Positions 22,690 to 64,000 of a stretch of DNA of 64,000 nt are shown here, in pieces. Made by a program: the position numbers and the translations under genes. Each line of letters starts with the position of its first letter. The first letter of the stretch is position 1. The notes beneath the pieces were generated by a model. It was not told the origin of the DNA. It saw only the letters and a list, made by a program, of their open reading frames with translations, and did not search any database. The DNA comes from Mytilus edulis (taxonomy: Eukaryota), in assembly GCF_963676685.1 (NCBI RefSeq), contig NC_092352.1:76322001-76386000 (forward strand), written 5' to 3'.

Positions 22690-22754
22690 TATGTTATATT
22701 TTTGCCTATTATTGTAAAAACTATAATATTTAGATAGAAACGTTAGTGGCAAAC

Positions 22755-23294
22755 ATGATCAGTATGACACGGTCTACAGACAGGTCCCCTAAGCCAACAA
22801 TGATCAGTAGGACAAGGTCTACAGACAGGTCAACTAAGCCAAAAATTATCAGAAGGACAAAGTCTACAGACAGGTCAACTAAGCAAAAAATGATCAGTAG
22901 GACAAGGTTTACAGACAGATCAACTAAGCCAAAAATGATCAGTAGGACAAGGTCTACAGACAGGTCAACTAAGCAAAAAATGATCAGTAGGACAAGGTTT
23001 ACAGACAGATCAACTAAGCCAAAAATGATCAGTAGGACAAGGTATACAGACAGGTCAACTAAGCCAAAAATGATCAGTAGGACAAGGTCTACAGACAGGT
23101 CAACTAAGCTAAAAATAATCAGTAGGACAAGGTATACAGACCGGTCAACTAAGCCAAAAATGATCAGTAGGACAAGGTCTACAGACAGGTCAACTAAGCT
23201 AAAAATAATCAGTAGGACAAGGTATACAGACCGGTCAACTAAGCCAAAAATGATCAGTAGGACAAGGTCTACAGACAGATCAACTAAGCCAAAA
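22755..23294. repeat. 45-bp minisatellite, 12 copies
   Basis: Unit ATGATCAGTAGGACAAGGTCTACAGACAGGTCAACTAAGCCAAAA in direct tandem with no spacers. Confidence 0.95.
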
Positions 23295-24330
23295 ATGAGC
23301 GTTGAGATTTTATCGTAGTTATTGTCCCTTTAACAAATTAAATTTTTACACTAATTACATTTCGAGCAGACTCTATAGAAAATAGAATTAATTGGAACCA
23401 TCTGTTTTAGAGCAGTCATTATTGAAGATACATATAGATCCAGGTAAATGACACAAGCGACTGAGGCCTTCAATGTTTTCTTTTCACTGGATATGTACTT
23501 TTGAAATCTACATTTTGTATGGAAAAAAGGAACATGATGTTTCATCTTTTATTACTAACACGGAGGCATTGATAAGGTATGTATTATATTAAGATAGCAC
23601 GTTAATTATCTAAAAGTATAGCAAATGGTTTGACGTTCCCTCTTTCCGTTCTTGGGATTTCGAGAGAGAAAAAAATATCATGAAAAGAAAACAGTTGCAG
23701 ATATCAATTTTGAAATGTGAAAGTATGATTTTGCAAAGTGTGAATCCATGACCAAAGTTCAAACACAAGAAGTCCGAGATTGCTCTGACGGCATATTTTT
23801 ATGTATTGAAAGAAGACATTGAACATGCAGAAAATGTAAACTGTGTCCTTTTAATTACTCAAGGTTCAACTACGTTCACATCGTTTGCGCATATCATCTA
23901 GAATGTAGTAATTTATGTGATGAAATTAAGCAAATCCCGATTCTTTTGATAAAAGCAAAAACATTTCACTGAAAATAAAATATTAAGATAATTCGTTTTC
24001 GTTGCAAAGGATTATTATGAGCGGGAAACATACAAAAACGAACCTTAAATGCATGGTTTGTCTACTTTACAATGTTTAATTTTATTATTTTGACACAATG
24101 TGCTTAACGAATGCTGATGATGAACTTGGGGCTTGAGGCAATTATAATAACTAAAATGTGAAATACCTAAACTGTTCGATACCAGTTGCAAGAAAAATCT
24201 TGTTTTCCAATACACTGCCAAGTTATAGACGGGGCATTACGTACATACGGTGTTTAGTTTATTGTGCATTGTATTTGTATAACCTATAACTTTCTGATAA
24301 GAAAGTTCAACCGGACTGATTTCGACAGAA

Positions 24331-53028: not shown

Positions 53029-54081
53029 TTACTTGGCAGTGCTCGAAATCACTAGAGAATCTCTTTGTCCTGCTCCACAACAAAGAATGTACTTAAAAGC
53101 TTTACGGAAAGACGAATTTTTCACTCCAAATATAATCCAGTTTAGTCCACTGTTAATTAATCCAAAGCATGCCAAACATTTCTTCGCCATTTCAAGATTA
53201 TCACTAGGTTCAAGGAAGAGAGTTTCAAAGACTAATGTGACACAATAAGGCCCCCAGCAAACTGCAAAAACTCCAAGTACTAATATCATCATTTTTGTTT
53301 TCTTAATATTGTTTTTCTTTACACGCACGTGCCGAAATGTGTCTTCTGTCATAGCAGACTTTTCTGATTGTATTGCATTGATCTGTGAAAATGCAATTTT
53401 AACAACTTTTACATACATTACAAAATTAGCAATGATCGAGCCGATGAAAAATAAAAAAATAAGCCCTTTATAGCTCTTCGGGTTTATGTACGTTGAATCG
53501 CAAGGTATTCCAGGATACCATGAATTCCAGCCCAATAGCGGAAGACAGGCAACAAAAATAGAAATAATCCAAGATGATGCCATCAATGATATCAACCATC
53601 TCCTTGTCGCACGACTGGCATGTTGTAAAGGATACATTATTGCAAGGTACCGTTCAATAGAAATCACTAGAAGGTTCAAAACCGAAGAGCCAAGAAACGA
53701 TGTTTCAAATGTGTACCGTAACAAGCAGGTATATTTATCATGTCTCATTGGAGCATTGAAAATGAAAAATAAATCATATGGTATCATCACCGTCCCAATT
53801 AACAAGTCCGATGTGGCTAAATTGGCAATCAACATGTTAATCCGGGTTCTCAGCCTCTTGAATTTGAATATACTTATCAAAATAAGAGTGTTTCCGAATA
53901 TTATAGGAAGGAATATTATAAGTTCAATGAATAGAAATACCAGTCCCAGATGAATATATTCCAAACGCCAGTGCATTATTGGTTTAGATATTTCGGTTGT
54001 CAAAGAAGATCCATTGTCCATTGAGATTGTCGTTGTTGTAATATTTAACGCATGTGCTGGTGCAATAGTAACATTGGCCAT
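53029..54081 (-). CDS. Intronless class A (rhodopsin-like) GPCR, adenosine/biogenic-amine receptor-like orphan, 350 aa
   Basis: Seven hydrophobic segments, TM1 GN, TM2 LATSD, TM3 ERY, TM4 W, TM6 CWGPY, N-terminal N-glycosylation sequons, C-terminal CC. Confidence 0.92.
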   Translation of the reverse strand: MANVTIAPAHALNITTTTISMDNGSSLTTEISKPIMHWRLEYIHLGLVFLFIELIIFLPIIFGNTLILISIFKFKRLRTRINMLIANLATSDLLIGTVMIPYDLFFIFNAPMRHDKYTCLLRYTFETSFLGSSVLNLLVISIERYLAIMYPLQHASRATRRWLISLMASSWIISIFVACLPLLGWNSWYPGIPCDSTYINPKSYKGLIFLFFIGSIIANFVMYVKVVKIAFSQINAIQSEKSAMTEDTFRHVRVKKNNIKKTKMMILVLGVFAVCWGPYCVTLVFETLFLEPSDNLEMAKKCLACFGLINSGLNWIIFGVKNSSFRKAFKYILCCGAGQRDSLVISSTAK

Positions 54082-56431
54082 TAGAGAAAGTAATTCGAAA
54101 GTATTTCCAATATTTGTATTATTATTTTCTTTCGCTCAGTTTTTCTTCATCTCTAAATTGATATTTCTATTGATAAACGCTAAAGTGAGCCATTTCAAAT
54201 CAACCTTTACAATAATATCCTTTCGCATTGGATCAGCATTCTATTATTTTTATTCACTTCGTGTTATTTGTAATTATATTCTCAATTTATCAATAACATC
54301 AGTATTTGGGGCAGATGCATTTATATTAACAAAAAGAACCTTAAGGCATTTTTTTTTATCATATAGGATAATTACTTTCAAGTCATATGCGTCATATTGT
54401 TATTGATAGAGTTTTCGTCCGATGTGATTAAGACTTAGTTATATATATTTCAGGCTATTGATTTCGGTATATTGCGTATCCTAAAGTAAAGTTGGCATTT
54501 AAAAATACAGCGGAAATGTTATTTAAGTCTTATTCTATAGTAGTATGAGGTTATCGAATAAGGAAATATTAATTTCTGTGTTCCTTTGTTTTTTCTGCAC
54601 ATTTTAACCATTCTTTTTTTATTTGTTAATTATCCCACGTTCGTTATATTTTAACACCACATCATTTTTTAAGTTTGTCCAATTCGTGTCTTTTCTTAAT
54701 TTATTTAATTTATTATTTTCTATTCTTTAAATCCTATCCGGACCCTCTATAAAAATAAATGTTTGATAACAATTGCAGTGCGCATGACAAGAGCTTTTCC
54801 GGAAAAAACTCGAAACAAAAATTTTGGAAAAGCAGTATCGACCAAGCAAAAGCTGTATTCAGTTTATTGCAAATATCATTTGCCATATTTTATGAGAATT
54901 TTATTTTATCTAGAATCTCAATTACTAACATATGATGTGCATATATGTGTACATACAAAAAAGGTGTAGCAAAGGCTAATCGGCTTGTTCATTTTAGACT
55001 TAAGAGGTTCACAATTTTAAATTTGGGAAGGGGTTGGTGAGCTATTTGCATTTTCGCGGACTAAATATTCATCGGCACCGCACAGACTGTTGTCTTCGAG
55101 ATTTTAATTCTTACGCTATATAACGCTTTTTCGACCTATTGTTTTAAAAAATCAGCGTGTGGTTGCAAATAATCTCAGTAGATGATTGGATAAGTGAAAA
55201 GGTCATTAACTTTATCAGCTCTCAGGACGACGGAATTAACAGGTGTTTAAGAATTTGACAACTTTTTAAAAGCGGAGTTAATTCCATATTCAGATATTAA
55301 GCTGGTGATACCCTCAAGGAGTTAAAACATCTAATTGAAAAATCCGAGTATTAATCAGGATAACACTATCAAAATGAACTTTTCCTATTGAAGTGATATC
55401 TTAACCGAAGATCTCTTAGTTGATACCATATTCCCGAGCTGTCTTGGTATAACACCATTGCCTTGTCATGGACTGTAGCTTTCAATATAGCTACTGAACA
55501 ACGGATTTCTAATGGTCAATTTGTTGTGATCTCTCGCAATGTTAACTAACGTCGCCATTATTTGGTTGGAATATTTGAGTATCAGATTACCACAGATATT
55601 ATACCATGCTATTTTCCTCAATTGAAGGCGAATTATCATCAAATTTATCCTTGCATGAACACATGATGGGTGCAACTTATGGAGTTTAACATTCGAAAGC
55701 TTTTGAGATTAGTCCCGATTCCTGATAAGACTCTAGTTACTCGGTCGTCAGGTGGGAAGTGGTTTGATGTGTCTTTTTTTTTTTTTATTAAAGATTAATG
55801 GTTCATGATTAAAAATATCGTAAAAACAATCTAATAAAACTTATAATATTTGAATTTAAGAATTTGCCGCTTTAGAATCTGAAGCTTTAAATTATTAAAA
55901 GTCAAATATATATTGCTGTTACATCGTGTACATATAAAAAAAACTGGTGTCTGAGTAATTCAATTTTTTTTTAAAGTCTGATATACTTTTTTTGTTATTC
56001 GTATTGTTTCTTTTGCTGGTACAAATCACTAAAATACTGAACTCCGATAAAAATTCAAAACATAAAGTTTCTTATCAAATGGCAAAATCAAACACACCAA
56101 CAGAATGGATAGCAAAGCGTAAGTCTGTTCAAACGAAACTTATTTTTATAAATGCACAATATATGCAGTTATAATAGAAGTGTAATTGACAAGAATGAAA
56201 TGTTTAATCATCTAATGGACTACTGCGAAGATATAAAATCTAATAGCTTTAAGGAAACTATAGATTGAGATGCAACCATACATTACTGTTAGATGAATTA
56301 TATTATTGTAGATAGTAATCTAATATATAATTATACTACTTCTATATAGTAAGTACTATTTACAAAGTATACAATCATGGTTTTTATTTTCGTATCTGCT
56401 TGCTTGGTCTTACTTGAAATGGGGAAGTTTT

Positions 56432-56736: not shown

Positions 56737-57924
56737 CATAATAATGTGTTGGTTCTCCAACGATAAAGAGATGTGTTGACACAAAATAAAAGATAGATAA
56801 AAATACTTCATTATTGCAAAATTCTTAGTTTTAGTAAATACTTTTCAAGAAATATCATTATTATAGTGTTATTGATCATGTTGATGATATCAAAAAATAC
56901 AAAAAATGGCTATCCTTATTTGAAAAATATTTTGTTAAAGATTTTCATTACAAAATTTTACATGAATGAGTGATACGTTAAATCTGATAAGTTCAGAACA
57001 AAGTAAGCGTTAAATTACAGAAAAATATAATAGTAAAATCTGTTTTATGAGTTTTAAATGATAAACGTTTTTAGGAAAATTCCCATTATAGTTTGAGAAT
57101 ACAGAAATGAAGGTTGCTATAACATCCCCCCCCCCCCTCAAACAGGCAAACAAGATCCTTTCAAAACATTGCCGATACGTTGAGTGCAGAAACAGTTATC
57201 CAATATTGTGTGGGGTTTTATGCTTCTAAATCTAGTTTAAGCTTAGACATTTACCTGTGATAATATAAACGTCACAAAAAAAAAGTTTTATGACATTGAT
57301 CTATTAATGTGACGCACAGTTTATATTTTGTTTGTGGTATTCTTGTGTTTCGTAAATTATTGGGAGGTGTCCATTGTTATTCTGAGGTTTAAACGTTTTA
57401 GTGCACTATTATATAATTCATTTATATATTTTATTGTACTCATTGTTCTTGCGTTTGTTTTTACTGTATTCCTTTTACGAAGTGTTGTCATTTTAGAAGT
57501 ATTTATTTTAAACATTTTCATATAAGCGGGAGGTTTGGCTAGCCATAAAACCAGGTCCAAACGACCATTTTTTTTTTAAACGGCCGGTACCAATTAAGTC
57601 AGTTGTATTCTACAGTCCGTTTCTGTGCATGGTGGCGTTTGCTTTTGTTGTAGTTCAGTTTTTCTGTTGTTCCATTGGTTTCCTTTTATATTTGATGTCT
57701 TTCTCTTGGTTTTATTTTTTTTACCCAGATTTGTTGTGCTTAATCGAATAATGACTATTGAACAGCGATATACTAATATTTCCTTTATTTGTGGCAGTTT
57801 ACAACTTTTTTACGTATTCCTCTGTTAACCTTTTCCCCCTCTTGAAATATTGCTTTAAACGTCATATCTTACAATATGACATTTCGATAATAACGCAGTC
57901 ACACTCTGTATGACTTAAATAGTT

Positions 57925-60900
57925 TTAGAAACTTTCAAAGTGCAAGATAGTTTCATATATATCGTGATGCTGACATACAGAGGCAATATCCAATGGTGAT
58001 AATCCTAAACTATTACATATTGAAGGATCTGCACCAAAATTTAATAATGCCTCGACAATTTCACATTTACCAGAACCAGCAGCTCGATGCAATGCACCGC
58101 TACCAATGGTGTTTGCACTATTAGGGTCTGCATTATGTTCTAAAAGTAACAAAACAATTTCAAAATATCCATAGAATGATGCTTCAGACAACGGGGAATT
58201 ACCTTCATTGTCATATTTGTTTACGTCAGCATTATTAAGAAGCAAAGTTTCTACAACTTTTAAGTTTCCTGCACGTCCTGCACGAAATAATGGTGTTTCT
58301 CCTAACTTGTTTGAAGAATCGATTTCGGCTTTGTTCTTTATTAAAATCTTCACAGACTCTTCTCTTCCATAGAAAGCTGCTTCCGAAAGGCAAGAATTTC
58401 CATGGATATTACAAACGTTTGGATCGGATTTATGTGCAAGTAATAACTCAACAACCTTTGGATTTGTACTTCTGACTGCTATATGCAATGCTGTTTCATT
58501 GTTATCATTAACACTGCTGATATCAGCACCATTTTCAAGTAAATATTTCACTAAAGAAGCACGACCAAAATATGAAGCAATTGACAAAGGAGTGTGCAAG
58601 TGTTTACTGCACTGGTTGATGTTCGCTCCAAATCTTACTAAAACGCTCGTTATATCGACGTTATTTATTGAGGTAGCCAGTAGTAAAGGATAGTTGTCAT
58701 CTTGGTCACTAACATTTGGATCCGAACCATACTCTAATAAAACTCGAACGACATCTGTGTGACCTCTTTCTACTGCCTCACAAAGACAATAACGCCCATT
58801 TAGTAACTCTTTAAAGTTTGCATGATGGTCAAGGAGCATCTTGACAGTTCCTAACTGTCCACGTGAAACGGCTTCAAATAGTGGAGAGACACCAAAGTTC
58901 TTTTGCAAAATATTTGGATCCGCTTTCTGTTGAAGTAAAAGATCAACAATGTCAGTGCTTCCATTTCGACAAGCAACATACAGTGAAGTCCAACCATTAT
59001 TGTTTTGTAAATTTACGTCTGCATTGAAGTCGCATAACACTTTGACAACATCAGGAAACCTATTATATGATGCCCAATATAGTGGAAATACTCCTGCAAG
59101 ACTACGTTTGTTCGGGTCAGCACCATATGTTAATAACATCTGGCAAAGAGCTTTTTTTCCCATTCCGGCTGCAACGCATAAAGGGGTAAACCCTTGCTGA
59201 TCGGCAATATTTGCATCGGCTTTTGCCTTAAGCAAGATCGATAATGTTGACGTGTATTCATTTTCGATTGCTATACTGACCATACTGCGCCCAATCACAT
59301 CCCGGATGTTAACATTCATTTTAAAGTCTATCAACATTTTTACAATTTCGTCATAACCGGAAGTGACAGCTATAACTAAAGGGGATCTTCTATCTGATTC
59401 ATCGAACTGTCGTAGTCTTTTCACGATGTCTAACTTGTTAGTATAACAATATGAAGTAAATTTCTTTCGATATATTTCGAACGCAAGCTGTCTGTTATCG
59501 AATGCCTTGTCAACATGTCGAAGTATCCTTTTAAAGTACTCACACTCTTTCTCTATGGGAACTGGTATATAACATCCGTTGTTATCTGCTTCTAGGGATT
59601 CAAACTGATAACGTTCAGATACAAACTCTATATTACCATATTGGAGTATAAAATCAAACATTTCAGTACCAACAAAGACAGCTAAAATATCAAACAATTT
59701 GTCGTGTAGCGCTTTATACTTGTTTTCATCATGTATGACGTATGACCCTAAAAACATTTCCAATTGACGTTTTAATGTCTTTCTTGACGGCACGCAATTC
59801 ATTTCACATTCCTCGAATAAAAGCTGTAGAAGTTGTTTATCTTCGTCAGATAAGATAGAGGAAAGCCAATTGTCTTCAATGGCGTTGTTGTAAAGGACCA
59901 GAAGTGCTAAAGAACAAAATGACATTTTGTCATTTTGTAATTGTAACTGTGTTAAGTTTTCTTCTATTGCATGAACGGGCCTAGTGAAAAAGTCTTTAAT
60001 GTTATGCTGTCGATGTTCGGGGTATAACTTACACAACAGAGGAAAAAAGTCATAACGTGAAGAAGGTAAAATGTCTTTAACGATATCTGCCTCGGGGTTT
60101 GACAAATACACGCTTGCTATCTTACCTAAATCTTCGGTTGACAATGCAAGATTTGGAGACGACAAATCGCATACAGATGATGTCAACAGCTTTAATTTCT
60201 GAAAACCTTGACTTCTAAATATGTTTGTTCTGCATGACAATAGTATTTTGGTGTGACGAGCACGTAAGATACTTTCAATATCGTCCTTGTATATTTCCCA
60301 CGACTCAGCAAGCTGAGTACTCAAAGAGTATTTACCGCATACATCATCGATAATAAACACCTGACTTTGATCCGGGTTGTTGTAATTCATAATATCTAGG
60401 GGAAAATGAACGGGTACTATTTCGCAATTTTCCCCTTGATGTAGACACATAGCTACGTGATGAATCAAAGATGATTTTCCAATTCCGGGGTTTCCAATTA
60501 CAGTAACAATGCTATTCTCACTTATTGCACCAAGTAGAAATTTTGCAGCCTTTGTTTCGACGAATAATTTATTTTCTGTCTTCCATGTTTCTACTTTCAA
60601 CTTCATTATTTCTGAAAAATAAATATGTATTGATAATATCAATTAAACTGCAGTGTAATTAGATACACAAAATTTAATTGAAAAAAAAACAAAATAGCTT
60701 GAGAGAAACATTGACAAAGGGTTTTATTGTTACGAAGCTTTTTTATAACATATTTTTCTATCATAATGAAAGAAGTCACACGAGGAACAATATATTTACT
60801 TTTTAGTATTAAGGCTACCAGTATAGCAACACTCATTGTGAACTTTAAAAAAAACCAAAAGAATGTTCAATCTCCATAACACTGTGTAAAACCACCGGAA

Positions 60901-62832
60901 ATAAGTCTAATCGAATCAAAAATATCTAAAACTTCCTGAGAAGTACATAAAAAAAAAATGCGACGAAAGATCGTCTATAAACGTATCAATGAAATAATGC
61001 TTAATGGATTTTTTTTTAATTCTACCTTTAACATTGATCGGAATTGGGTTTTTCAGACTGTTTACAACTTCATTAAGGTTTTGTATTTCTTGGGTATTCT
61101 GTCGTATTTCCAGTAACAACTCTTTATCATGTTGGTTGAGACTGGCTACTTTGATATCACAGCATTCTTGAACGAATGACTGACCACCTAAACGAACAAT
61201 AGCCTGCATGAAAATATAATTAAACTTTATGATAAATAAATACTTTTATATTCAATGTCCAATTCTGATGTGACTCTGAATGACTAAAATGTGATATAAT
61301 ATGCATTAAATGGATCAAATTGATTTTAATTGTCAAAATTATAAAAGATAACTTTTAACATTGTCATAAAGCGGGAGGTTTGGCTAGCTATTAATAAAAT
61401 TGAGAAAGGAAATGGGGAATGTGTCACAGCGACAACAACCCGACCATATTAAACCAAGCTCAACCCACCATTTGTTTCTTATACTGTCCTGTACCAATTC
61501 ATGAATCTGGTGACAGTTGTTATCAAAGAGTTCGTGTCTATGTTTGTTGGCGTTTCGGTTCCTTGCACTTCAGTGTTCCTGTAGTTCCTTTGTTTTCCTC
61601 TTATAGTGTTTCCCTAGGTTTTAGTTTGTAATCTGGATTTGTTTTCTCTCAATAGATTTATGGTTTTTGAACATCGGTATACTACTAGTGCCTTAATTAA
61701 AGCTCTTCATCTTTTATATAAGCTTTGGATTTCAAATATTTTGGCCACGAGCATCACTGAAGAGACATGTATTGTCGAAATGCGCATCTGGTGCAAGAAA
61801 ATTAGTACCGTTAATTTTATTATTTTAACGCACAGTGGAACATGGTTATGTTTAATAATTATAAATTATAACTTTGTATCAGACTGACCGCCTGTACCAC
61901 ATTTGTAATATATATTTATAAAATAGTTGTTTGCACGGTAGCAGTCCAAAGAGACCTATGTTATCCTATCCTTACAGAACTCAGATACGACAAATATTTG
62001 ATCTTTCTCCTAAATACGTGTGCTTAGAAGACAGAGAAGCAGCAATACTAATTTTGAAGTCTTGGATTGGACACAGTCGTTGGTCGAACACATGACCTCT
62101 CGTACTTGGATGTTTGATTAGATCATAATTAATCATAAAACCACATGCTGCTTAAACGTATTAAATAAATACACAAATGCATTGTGTATCAATGCTCTTA
62201 AACTTCATACCTTATTTGGTCTATTTATCGTTTTTGATTAGAGCATAATAAATGGGTTTTATGAAGACGAAACTCACGTCTTTTGTACAAATTCATTGTA
62301 TCTGCGATGAGGTTATTAACCAAGGGAGAATATGATATATAGAAATCCTTATTTCAGTTGAAAGAAAATAACTGAAAATAGGCTTTGTGAAAACTGCAAG
62401 ATATCTATTGAATAAAATATATTTTTAGCAAAATTATAAAGATTGAAAACTAAAAATTTTGCTACTGCAAATAAATTATACATACCAAGACATTACTTAC
62501 TGGCCAAATGGTAAAACAGTGGTGGGATTCTTTTACAAAATAGTGATTTTATCGTAGGTCTGTTTTACACAAACTTTAAGAAACATATCTATGACAAGAA
62601 GAACTTACATTTGAAAGATTATCCCAAGTTTCATTGAAATCTTGTTGCGATATTTTTCCATCTTCAGAATGCGAAATCTGATTTCTGAAATGTTTTATTC
62701 TAGAAACGTCAGCACCAGGAGACGTGTCAGTCTTACTTGGCATTGTGTCTTTAATAGACAAAGATGTTAAATTCCTCAGTAAACATGCCATGAGTGTTAT
62801 GTCGAACTCGCTTGAAGTTATTTGAGAAGTCC
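57925..62832 (-). CDS. DZIP3-like HEPN + STAND (nSTAND3-like) NTPase + ankyrin-repeat protein, 5'-incomplete; exons 62832-62609, 61203-61026, 60611-57925
   Basis: Phase-compatible GT-AG introns. FDITLMACLLRNL...RIKHFRNQISHS (RxxxxH), a short coiled coil, Walker A GNPGIGKS, Walker B VFIIDD, then ~14-15 ankyrin repeats. The first exon was not found in the window. Confidence 0.88.
61751..61794 (+). ncRNA. Minimal type I hammerhead ribozyme, second sequence family (antisense within an intron of the STAND gene)
   Basis: GCATCA-CTGAAGA-GAC atgtatt GTC-GAAA-TGCGCA-TC-TGGTGC: all three stems pair, with compensatory changes relative to the 8415 copy. Confidence 0.85.
61925..62107 (-). mobile_element. 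Degenerate tRNA-derived SINE fragment
   Basis: Minus strand reads GTGTTCGACC (B-box-like) ... CCAAGACTTCAAAATTAGTATTGCTGCTTCTCT...CTAAGCACACG, resembling bivalve SINE heads (recalled, not searched). Confidence 0.4.
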
Positions 62833-64000
62833 CTGAAAATATAGCATTCATATATATCTATTACATATTAAACTAATAAATGACCTCTATTCAGACAACT
62901 AAATTTATTCTGCGCTACCATATGTACAGTATATTTCGTAACTGTGAAAAGGGATTAATATAAGTTGAAAAACTTGTTTCCCAATCCACTATAAATAAAT
63001 ATGTTTAAACTAATTTCGTAACTTAGAAAGATACATTGATTTCAGGGTGTCTTTTTCGTTATTCTTCTCAGCTAATTCAAACAATGACACACCACAAAGT
63101 TTACTAAATGAGACATATTTGGTTTGTACAATCTCCCAGGTGTTTAAAACAATAACGGGTTTTTTTTTCAAACAAAATTGGTCCTAGACCAGCAACATTT
63201 AACCTAAGTATGATAAACGAAATATAAAGCAAAAAAAACTAAGACGTACAAAGGAATGGTATGAGACTGTCATACAAGTGAGAGATTACGCTAGCTATAA
63301 AACCAGCCTGAGGTTTAAATCACCATTTTCTACATACTATAATGCCTTTCCTCGTCTGATGTGTTTGAGCTTTAGATTTTGACATTTGATTATGAACTTT
63401 CCTTTTCAAATTTTCCACGGAGTTTGGTATTTTTGTGATTTTACTGTTCCCGTACTTTATCACTTATTAGGTGATACACTGCATTTTGAGAAGAATAAAA
63501 CTCATTTTCTTAAATAATATTAACTCATCATAAATGCCAGGCTTCCACTTTTGTATGCCATTCTCGTATTTCGTCTGCAAGATCCATCAGTGACGCCGTT
63601 CGAAAAAAAAACTTAAGATCGAAGTTAAAGATAATTGGGAACCGACATTCCCGAATAGTTTTGACAAATACAGCTAATTAAGGTAGTCGTTTGCTGGGGA
63701 AGAAAATCTATAGTATTTCGAAAAATGAAACTTTTGTGAACTGTTAATTTTTAATGTGTACCATATCTGTATTCAATGATAATTTAAGTCAACAATAGTG
63801 CTGTCTACTGTTTATGTATATATAAATCATATTGTGTGCTAAATTAACTACCTTAAGAGTAAACTGAAGTAAACAGTTCTAAAACAACTTATCAATTTCA
63901 CTTGTTTAAATCATTTTCAACACGCCTTTATTCTCTTAATAGTACATTGTTTGCTATTACATGTATGTTCAAATTCATAAAAGTGAATGAAAAAAAAAAT

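Follow-up and report, generated by a model that had tools for sequence, protein, structure and literature searches.

The window analyzed here, a 64,000-nt stretch of Mytilus edulis contig NC_092352.1, harbors on its minus strand three exons of one gene (62832-62609, 61203-61026, and 60611-57925) with AG/GT ends and compatible phases, in agreement with the three spliceable exons proposed in an initial annotation. Exon 2 (62609..62832) encodes the core of a DZIP3/hRUL138-like HEPN domain (Pfam PF18738, E 2e-20) and is joined to exon 3 in three runs. Exon 3 (61026..61203), defined by its splice ends, its joints, and the structural model, contributes the end of the HEPN domain and a long linker helix. 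Exon 4 (57925..60611), identified by Pfam and spliced reads, encodes an nSTAND3 NTPase, a helical/winged-helix region, and an ankyrin array, followed by the stop. The initial annotation had expected exon 1 beyond the 64 kb; flanking sequence and database isoforms place this first coding exon, with the ATG and the first half of the HEPN domain, 36-243 bases past the window end (L011:2036-2243, minus strand), and part of intron 1 occupies 62833..64000. Exon 1, which is represented in database isoforms P0023 and P0025, has an alternative donor 6 bases past the first that adds two residues. RNA-like contigs end at 57779-57796, delimiting a short 3′ untranslated part (57779..57924, minus strand). 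Together, the four exons encode a stop-free protein of 1,098 aa.

The joints 60611/61026 and 61202/62608 were found in 3/3 RNA-like runs (X2, X3, and X6, from three studies) and were both absent from the DNA-like run X15; the runs are called RNA-like by the tool's guess, and none of those listed is recorded as RNA. Because record 15 of X3 is a single contig spanning 62741 to 57792, the RNQISH motif and the NTPase-ankyrin exon lie on one transcript. Reads support the exon 2/3 and 3/4 joints; the exon 1 joint comes from database models and from orthologue contigs (P0004, P0054, and P0056), which are short, have a single ORF, and, like the database models, carry the whole HEPN domain in frame. 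In four database isoforms, this domain is partly or wholly missing. The closest proteins are P0001 from M. galloprovincialis, which differs at 8 of the 1,098 aa, and P0023 from M. edulis, which matches the window residue at all eight; of the 13 exon differences listed for the RNA-like runs, 9 are residue-changing. The spliced joints and the stop-free coding sequence rule out a pseudogene or a chance join of exons: the window gene is intact and is expressed as spliced RNA.

One RNA-like contig has TCAG ahead of exon 2 (62832-62836), and the same TCAG ends an upstream exon implied by P0001 (L011, about 2615). The arrangement would be consistent either with in-frame skipping of the ATG exon or with intron letters that were retained. 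The introns contain very high-copy repeats (61269-61821 and 62775-63527), whose summed depth reaches 3e5 in the DNA-like run. Elsewhere, the window holds seven related cysteine-rich exons in tandem (5720-49115, plus strand), six of which end in CVVCSK. They presumably resemble short-chain collagen C4-like proteins; the two that were scanned gave no Pfam match. A single-frame rhodopsin-family GPCR lies at 53029-54135 on the minus strand (Pfam 7tm_1, E 3e-40), and a tandem repeat at 22730-23329 is open on both strands. Upstream of the window gene, L011 4114-6109 contains reading-frame fragments that we take to be retroelement-like.

Domains of the encoded protein

The HEPN_DZIP3 profile (PF18738) scores 73.3 bits on exon 2 alone and 116.3 bits on the whole protein (cut-off 27), where it covers model positions 1-139 of 144 at residues 58-190. 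The RNQISH sequence reported in this DZIP3-like helical domain is an intact Rx4H motif (62669..62686, minus strand). We compared it with 80 of the 89 other HEPN exons paired with nSTAND3, a set that favors close pairs: RNxxxH is exact in 78/81 exons, window gene counted (R in 79/81, N in 80/81, H in 80/81), while the spacer residues vary and median identity is 50%. Of 38 cluster representatives with a HEPN domain, 34 have the motif too, and orthologues P0002, P0004, P0054, and P0056 retain Rx4H. R135 and several structural residues equal the motif in conservation among the paired exons, so its conservation is no proof of catalysis.

In a model of the HEPN domain alone (pLDDT 93), the motif lies at the end of helix 108-123. 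Csm6 RNases take the first two places in a fold search with this model (Z 7.4 at an rmsd of 3.7 over 114 aligned residues, and Z 6.5), with Cas13, Swt1, sacsin, LsoA, RnlA, and HepS further down. HEPN proteins make up 10 of the 50 rows by title, and 13 when presumed assignments are counted. Because all scores are below Z 8 and unrelated bundles are interleaved, with acyl-CoA dehydrogenases tying with rank 2, the predicted likeness to HEPN RNases gives weak support. Foldseek returned no match for the model at E 0.001, a PDB sequence search with exon 2 gave 0 matches, and the Pfam scan of the whole protein found no RING domain, a feature of the DZIP3 E3 ligase. The initial annotation had made its reading depend on three points that could be checked here, and none of them spoke against it: the exons are spliced, the domain matches the HEPN profile, and the motif is conserved among homologues.

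The P-loop NTPase with intact Walker motifs was likewise borne out. The nSTAND3 profile (PF20720) matches residues 241-375 with 83-84 bits (cut-off 27.2), and a motif scan and an alignment of 20 homologues identify Walker A GNPGIGKS (60472..60495) and Walker B FIIDD (60343..60357), both on the minus strand. Walker A GxGK, the Walker B D, R352, FP, and H527 are invariant in 20/20 homologues. Arg352 (60229..60231, minus strand) follows a core strand and is labeled here, by assumption, sensor-1-like; H527 belongs to the LHD motif of the winged helix (59701..59709, minus strand), which we take to be MHD-like. The NACHT profile stays below its cut-off (24.2-24.9 against 26.7 bits), and the Pfam scan of the whole protein gave no match to NB-ARC, Sir2, TPR, pseudokinase, or KEN. 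A PDB sequence search with the STAND part returned weak ORC1 matches only; ankyrin matches took up all places in a profile search and in the fold searches with the whole model.

In the AlphaFold model of the whole protein (mean pLDDT 87.8), the N-terminal domain is helical, and a long helix (pLDDT 56-74 over residues 181-220) links it to the core of the NTPase; a region of helices and a winged helix follows, and then the 15 ankyrin repeats. The model's pTM of 0.55 makes the arrangement of the domains unreliable. The ankyrins begin at about residue 629 (57928..59400, minus strand; Pfam, repeat comparison, model, and fold search) and form 15 helix pairs, at the upper end of the 14-15 originally estimated. 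They are mutually divergent, with a best-partner identity of 0.42, and they fill the C-terminus, where neither Pfam nor the model places an LRR.

The layout of the repeats is unchanged in orthologues with as little as 48% identity. With the numbering of the binding face taken from DARPins, which we assume to apply here, conservation is higher at the face than at the back in 6/7 orthologues (63% versus 39% for P0004, p 5e-4); the difference is not significant in the most distant orthologue (p 0.20). The face is not conserved above all non-face positions, and the back positions may simply be unconstrained. We considered a fast-evolving ankyrin sensor and rejected it for this gene, as the ankyrins show no excess change relative to the NTPase and the face is well kept. 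In a quick tree with SH-aLRT support only, which included 52 of at least 150 paralogues, the window gene falls into a clade of support 99 with six outside proteins and 0/52 paralogues; the bacterial rows are long branches, so we claim no origin from this tree. The window gene is a conserved single-copy member, whose nearest paralogue is 43% identical among the best 150 of 451 NTPase-query candidates. No paralogue lies in the window or 38 kb beyond, and a tandem cluster at the locus was dismissed because the window and L011-L014 hold no second HEPN, STAND, or ankyrin match. The divergent repeats, singleton clade, kept layout, conserved face, and lack of excess ankyrin change point to a fixed ligand.

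Relatives in the mussel genome and elsewhere

Genome searches yielded the best 150 of 371 candidates for an exon 2 query and the best 150 of 651 for the Pfam HEPN model (223 distinct), and the best 150 of 451 for the nSTAND3/NTPase query. Of the 150 NTPase matches, 59 are preceded on their own strand by a HEPN exon at most 10 kb away (0 downstream, 0 opposite) and 92 by one at most 30 kb away (12 downstream, 2 opposite). The window gene belongs to a family with about 90 or more relatives in this genome, which likely serve as intracellular immune sensors. GK[ST] and Walker B are each present in 52/52 paralogue NTPase exons compared. Their frames are open for at least 500 aa in 43/52, all 43 ending in 2 to 59 ankyrin matches, and broken before 500 aa in the other nine. 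At loci L052-L118, Ala replaces the first Gly of Walker A in 21/52 paralogues, with GK[ST] kept.

A long N-terminus is present in 65 of 150 cluster representatives; HEPN occurs in 37 of the 65, and CARD in five of the other 28. The order is effector-STAND-repeat with an exchangeable effector. Many paralogues have near-identical ankyrin repeats, with best-partner identity up to 0.96. We compared 205 repeat pairs of at least 85% DNA identity from 22 genes, the pairs not being independent of one another, at a binding face (hairpin and inner helix) fixed beforehand. pN is 0.102 at the face and 0.040 elsewhere, with pS of 0.090 and 0.082, and changes at the face exceed those at the back in 20/22 paralogues; as pN is near pS, selection may be relaxed rather than positive. 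Many paralogues thus vary most on the face, whereas the window gene has divergent repeats whose face is better kept than the back. With the module order, the CARD in place of HEPN in 5/28 relatives, and the diversified face, the NLR-like logic suggested earlier holds. In the strict sense (NACHT or NB-ARC plus LRR), the window gene has none of these domains and is not a NACHT-LRR NLR.

The HEPN-nSTAND3-ankyrin design is already in print for the oyster; the window gene adds a stand-alone, conserved, and intact mussel member. The Fig. 4 source data of Kaur et al. 2021 (PMC8195603) give TM+TRADD-N+HEPN+nSTAND3+Ankyrin in six isoform rows from two C. virginica genes. In those data the module is identical, but it follows a membrane anchor and TRADD-N, and none of the 17 nSTAND3 entries listed in file 4 is a stand-alone HEPN-nSTAND3-ankyrin protein. 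The literature searched contained no description of a stand-alone mussel family or of its conserved repeats, which supplements or subscription papers may hold. According to the available sections of one group of papers (PMC9646362, PMC8260672, PMC3710099), the pearl oyster genome has over 50 HEPN-NACHT genes, for which RNase activity was proposed, and Rx4-6H occurs in 194/202 N-terminal HEPN domains. As described there, these pearl oyster and anthozoan DZIP3/hRUL138-like proteins share the N-terminal Rx4-6H HEPN, STAND module, repeat sensor, expansion, and proposed RNase activity, yet they combine NACHT with LRR, TPR, or WD40, whereas the window gene combines nSTAND3 with ankyrins and its NACHT score is sub-threshold. 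Fusions of the DZIP3-like HEPN family to ankyrin and NACHT, and its expansion in oyster, were described by Anantharaman 2013.

Bacterial Avs5 is an nSTAND3 protein in which, in the accessible text (bioRxiv 10.1101/2025.07.08.663546), Walker A, a strand-end Arg, and the repeats are required. Avs5 and plasmid-borne Mrr-nSTAND3 proteins share the nSTAND3 core, a direct enzymatic effector, and a repeat sensor, as far as these sources describe them; their effector is Sir2 or Mrr and their sensor TPR-type, unlike in the window gene. Its STAND part is ~23% identical to the plasmid proteins and matches the candidate defence model PDC-S73 in PADLOC (E 1.5e-11), with no match to an Avs model. Two plasmid nSTAND3 genes (L146:3491-5761 and L145:3413-5695), one with an Mrr nuclease and one beside an AbiE pair, both match PDC-S73. 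Human SAMD9/SAMD9L, as covered in the available parts of PMC13245274, is an existing animal STAND-like protein with an RNase effector, whose own latent activity halts translation; it differs in its metal-dependent tRNase, its SAM, SIR2, TPR, and OB domains, and the loss of the Walker A Lys. In the section of PMC13449251 on fungal NLRs with repeats of high internal conservation (HIC), NACHT with HIC ankyrins is mainly a feature of Dikarya and no mussel family is named; many mussel paralogues are alike in their near-identical ankyrins that vary on one face, which the window gene lacks.

Possible function and competing readings

At somewhat better than even odds (about 0.55), we propose that the product is a ligand-gated innate-immune RNase with a fixed, conserved trigger. 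By analogy with Avs5 and SAMD9/9L, a latent RNase would be released by ligand binding and STAND oligomerization. In the resting state, the NTPase would be kept closed by the ankyrin arm together with the winged helix that carries LHD. A conserved protein ligand, either a host protein that the receptor guards or a conserved protein of a pathogen, would bind the concave ankyrin face; nucleotide exchange would lead the STAND cores to oligomerize, and the linker helix would bring HEPN domains into contact, pairing two RNxxxH motifs in one active site. Cellular and/or viral RNA would be cut, translation would stop, and the cell would likely be sacrificed. The low fold scores, the isoforms with an incomplete or missing HEPN domain, the residue-changing exon differences, and the nine broken paralogue frames count against this reading. 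The initial annotation spoke of an RNase L analogue. The likeness may stand for function, with an ankyrin sensor and a putative HEPN-superfamily RNase in common, but not for architecture: RNase L has its ankyrins first, then a pseudokinase and KEN last, and no STAND, whereas the window gene has neither pseudokinase nor KEN and the reverse order.

Instead of being an immune RNase, the product might be a switch in which the HEPN domain either engages RNA or a partner with no destructive cleavage, or cleaves a single substrate as part of housekeeping or a stress response. Its single copy and own clade with orthologues, ankyrins that change no faster than the NTPase, and splicing in all three RNA-like runs would fit; certain HEPN domains are non-catalytic (Anantharaman 2013), and the literature searched reports no assay of activity for the DZIP3-like HEPN family. 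The catalytic-type motif kept family-wide and relatives that show birth-and-death, CARD swaps, and face-focused change make such a switch unlikely. Those variable paralogues retain their own RNxxxH and NTPase motifs and therefore seem not to need a helper, and none lies in the window or 38 kb beyond; both points weigh against a conserved helper or executor activated by them, or by HEPN-less or CARD-bearing relatives, rather than by its own pathogen ligand. A conserved singleton beside many variable paralogues does recall plant sensor/helper pairs, and we consider a helper role distinctly unlikely.

A fixed binding face would also suit a fixed small ligand, and the ankyrins might recognize a second messenger of nucleotide type, either 2-5A or a cyclic dinucleotide, in which case the protein would functionally replace RNase L and act downstream of OAS-like enzymes. 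The genome has at least seven OAS1_C matches and a single KEN match, which lies away from the window gene and reads to us like IRE1, although both searches give lower bounds. The ankyrins of RNase L, which sense 2-5A (entries 4g8k and 4o1o), come no higher than 16th and 21st in a list of generic ankyrin fold matches, and a conserved face of 15 repeats suits a protein ligand; a nucleotide trigger is thus very improbable. We would give as little credence to a broader picture in which most mussel NLR-like receptors form an overlooked RNA-destroying nSTAND3-ankyrin family with fungal-style repeat shuffling, with the window gene as an RNase L substitute for a fixed signal such as an OAS-like product.

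If the proposed RNase activity is real, the window gene would represent a second animal STAND-RNase system beside SAMD9, with a bearing on the antiviral defence of farmed bivalves; the available part of the infection-response literature held nothing specific. As a conserved, expressed, and intact member, it is a good first construct for the DZIP3-like HEPN family and a good experimental entry point. Mollusc NLR surveys count NACHT domains, typically 5-20 per mollusc in the accessible text of PMC9646362. In this genome we found at least seven NACHT matches (113 of 162 candidates scored) and at least 11 NB-ARC matches versus at least 150 for nSTAND3, mostly HEPN-nSTAND3-ankyrin, all counts being lower bounds from queries that differ in kind; NACHT counts may therefore miss the main mussel receptor repertoire. 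Ten of the 11 NB-ARC matches lie on one contig (G000:C10, 13-56 Mb), and for seven of these the reading frame is open over about 1,400 aa.
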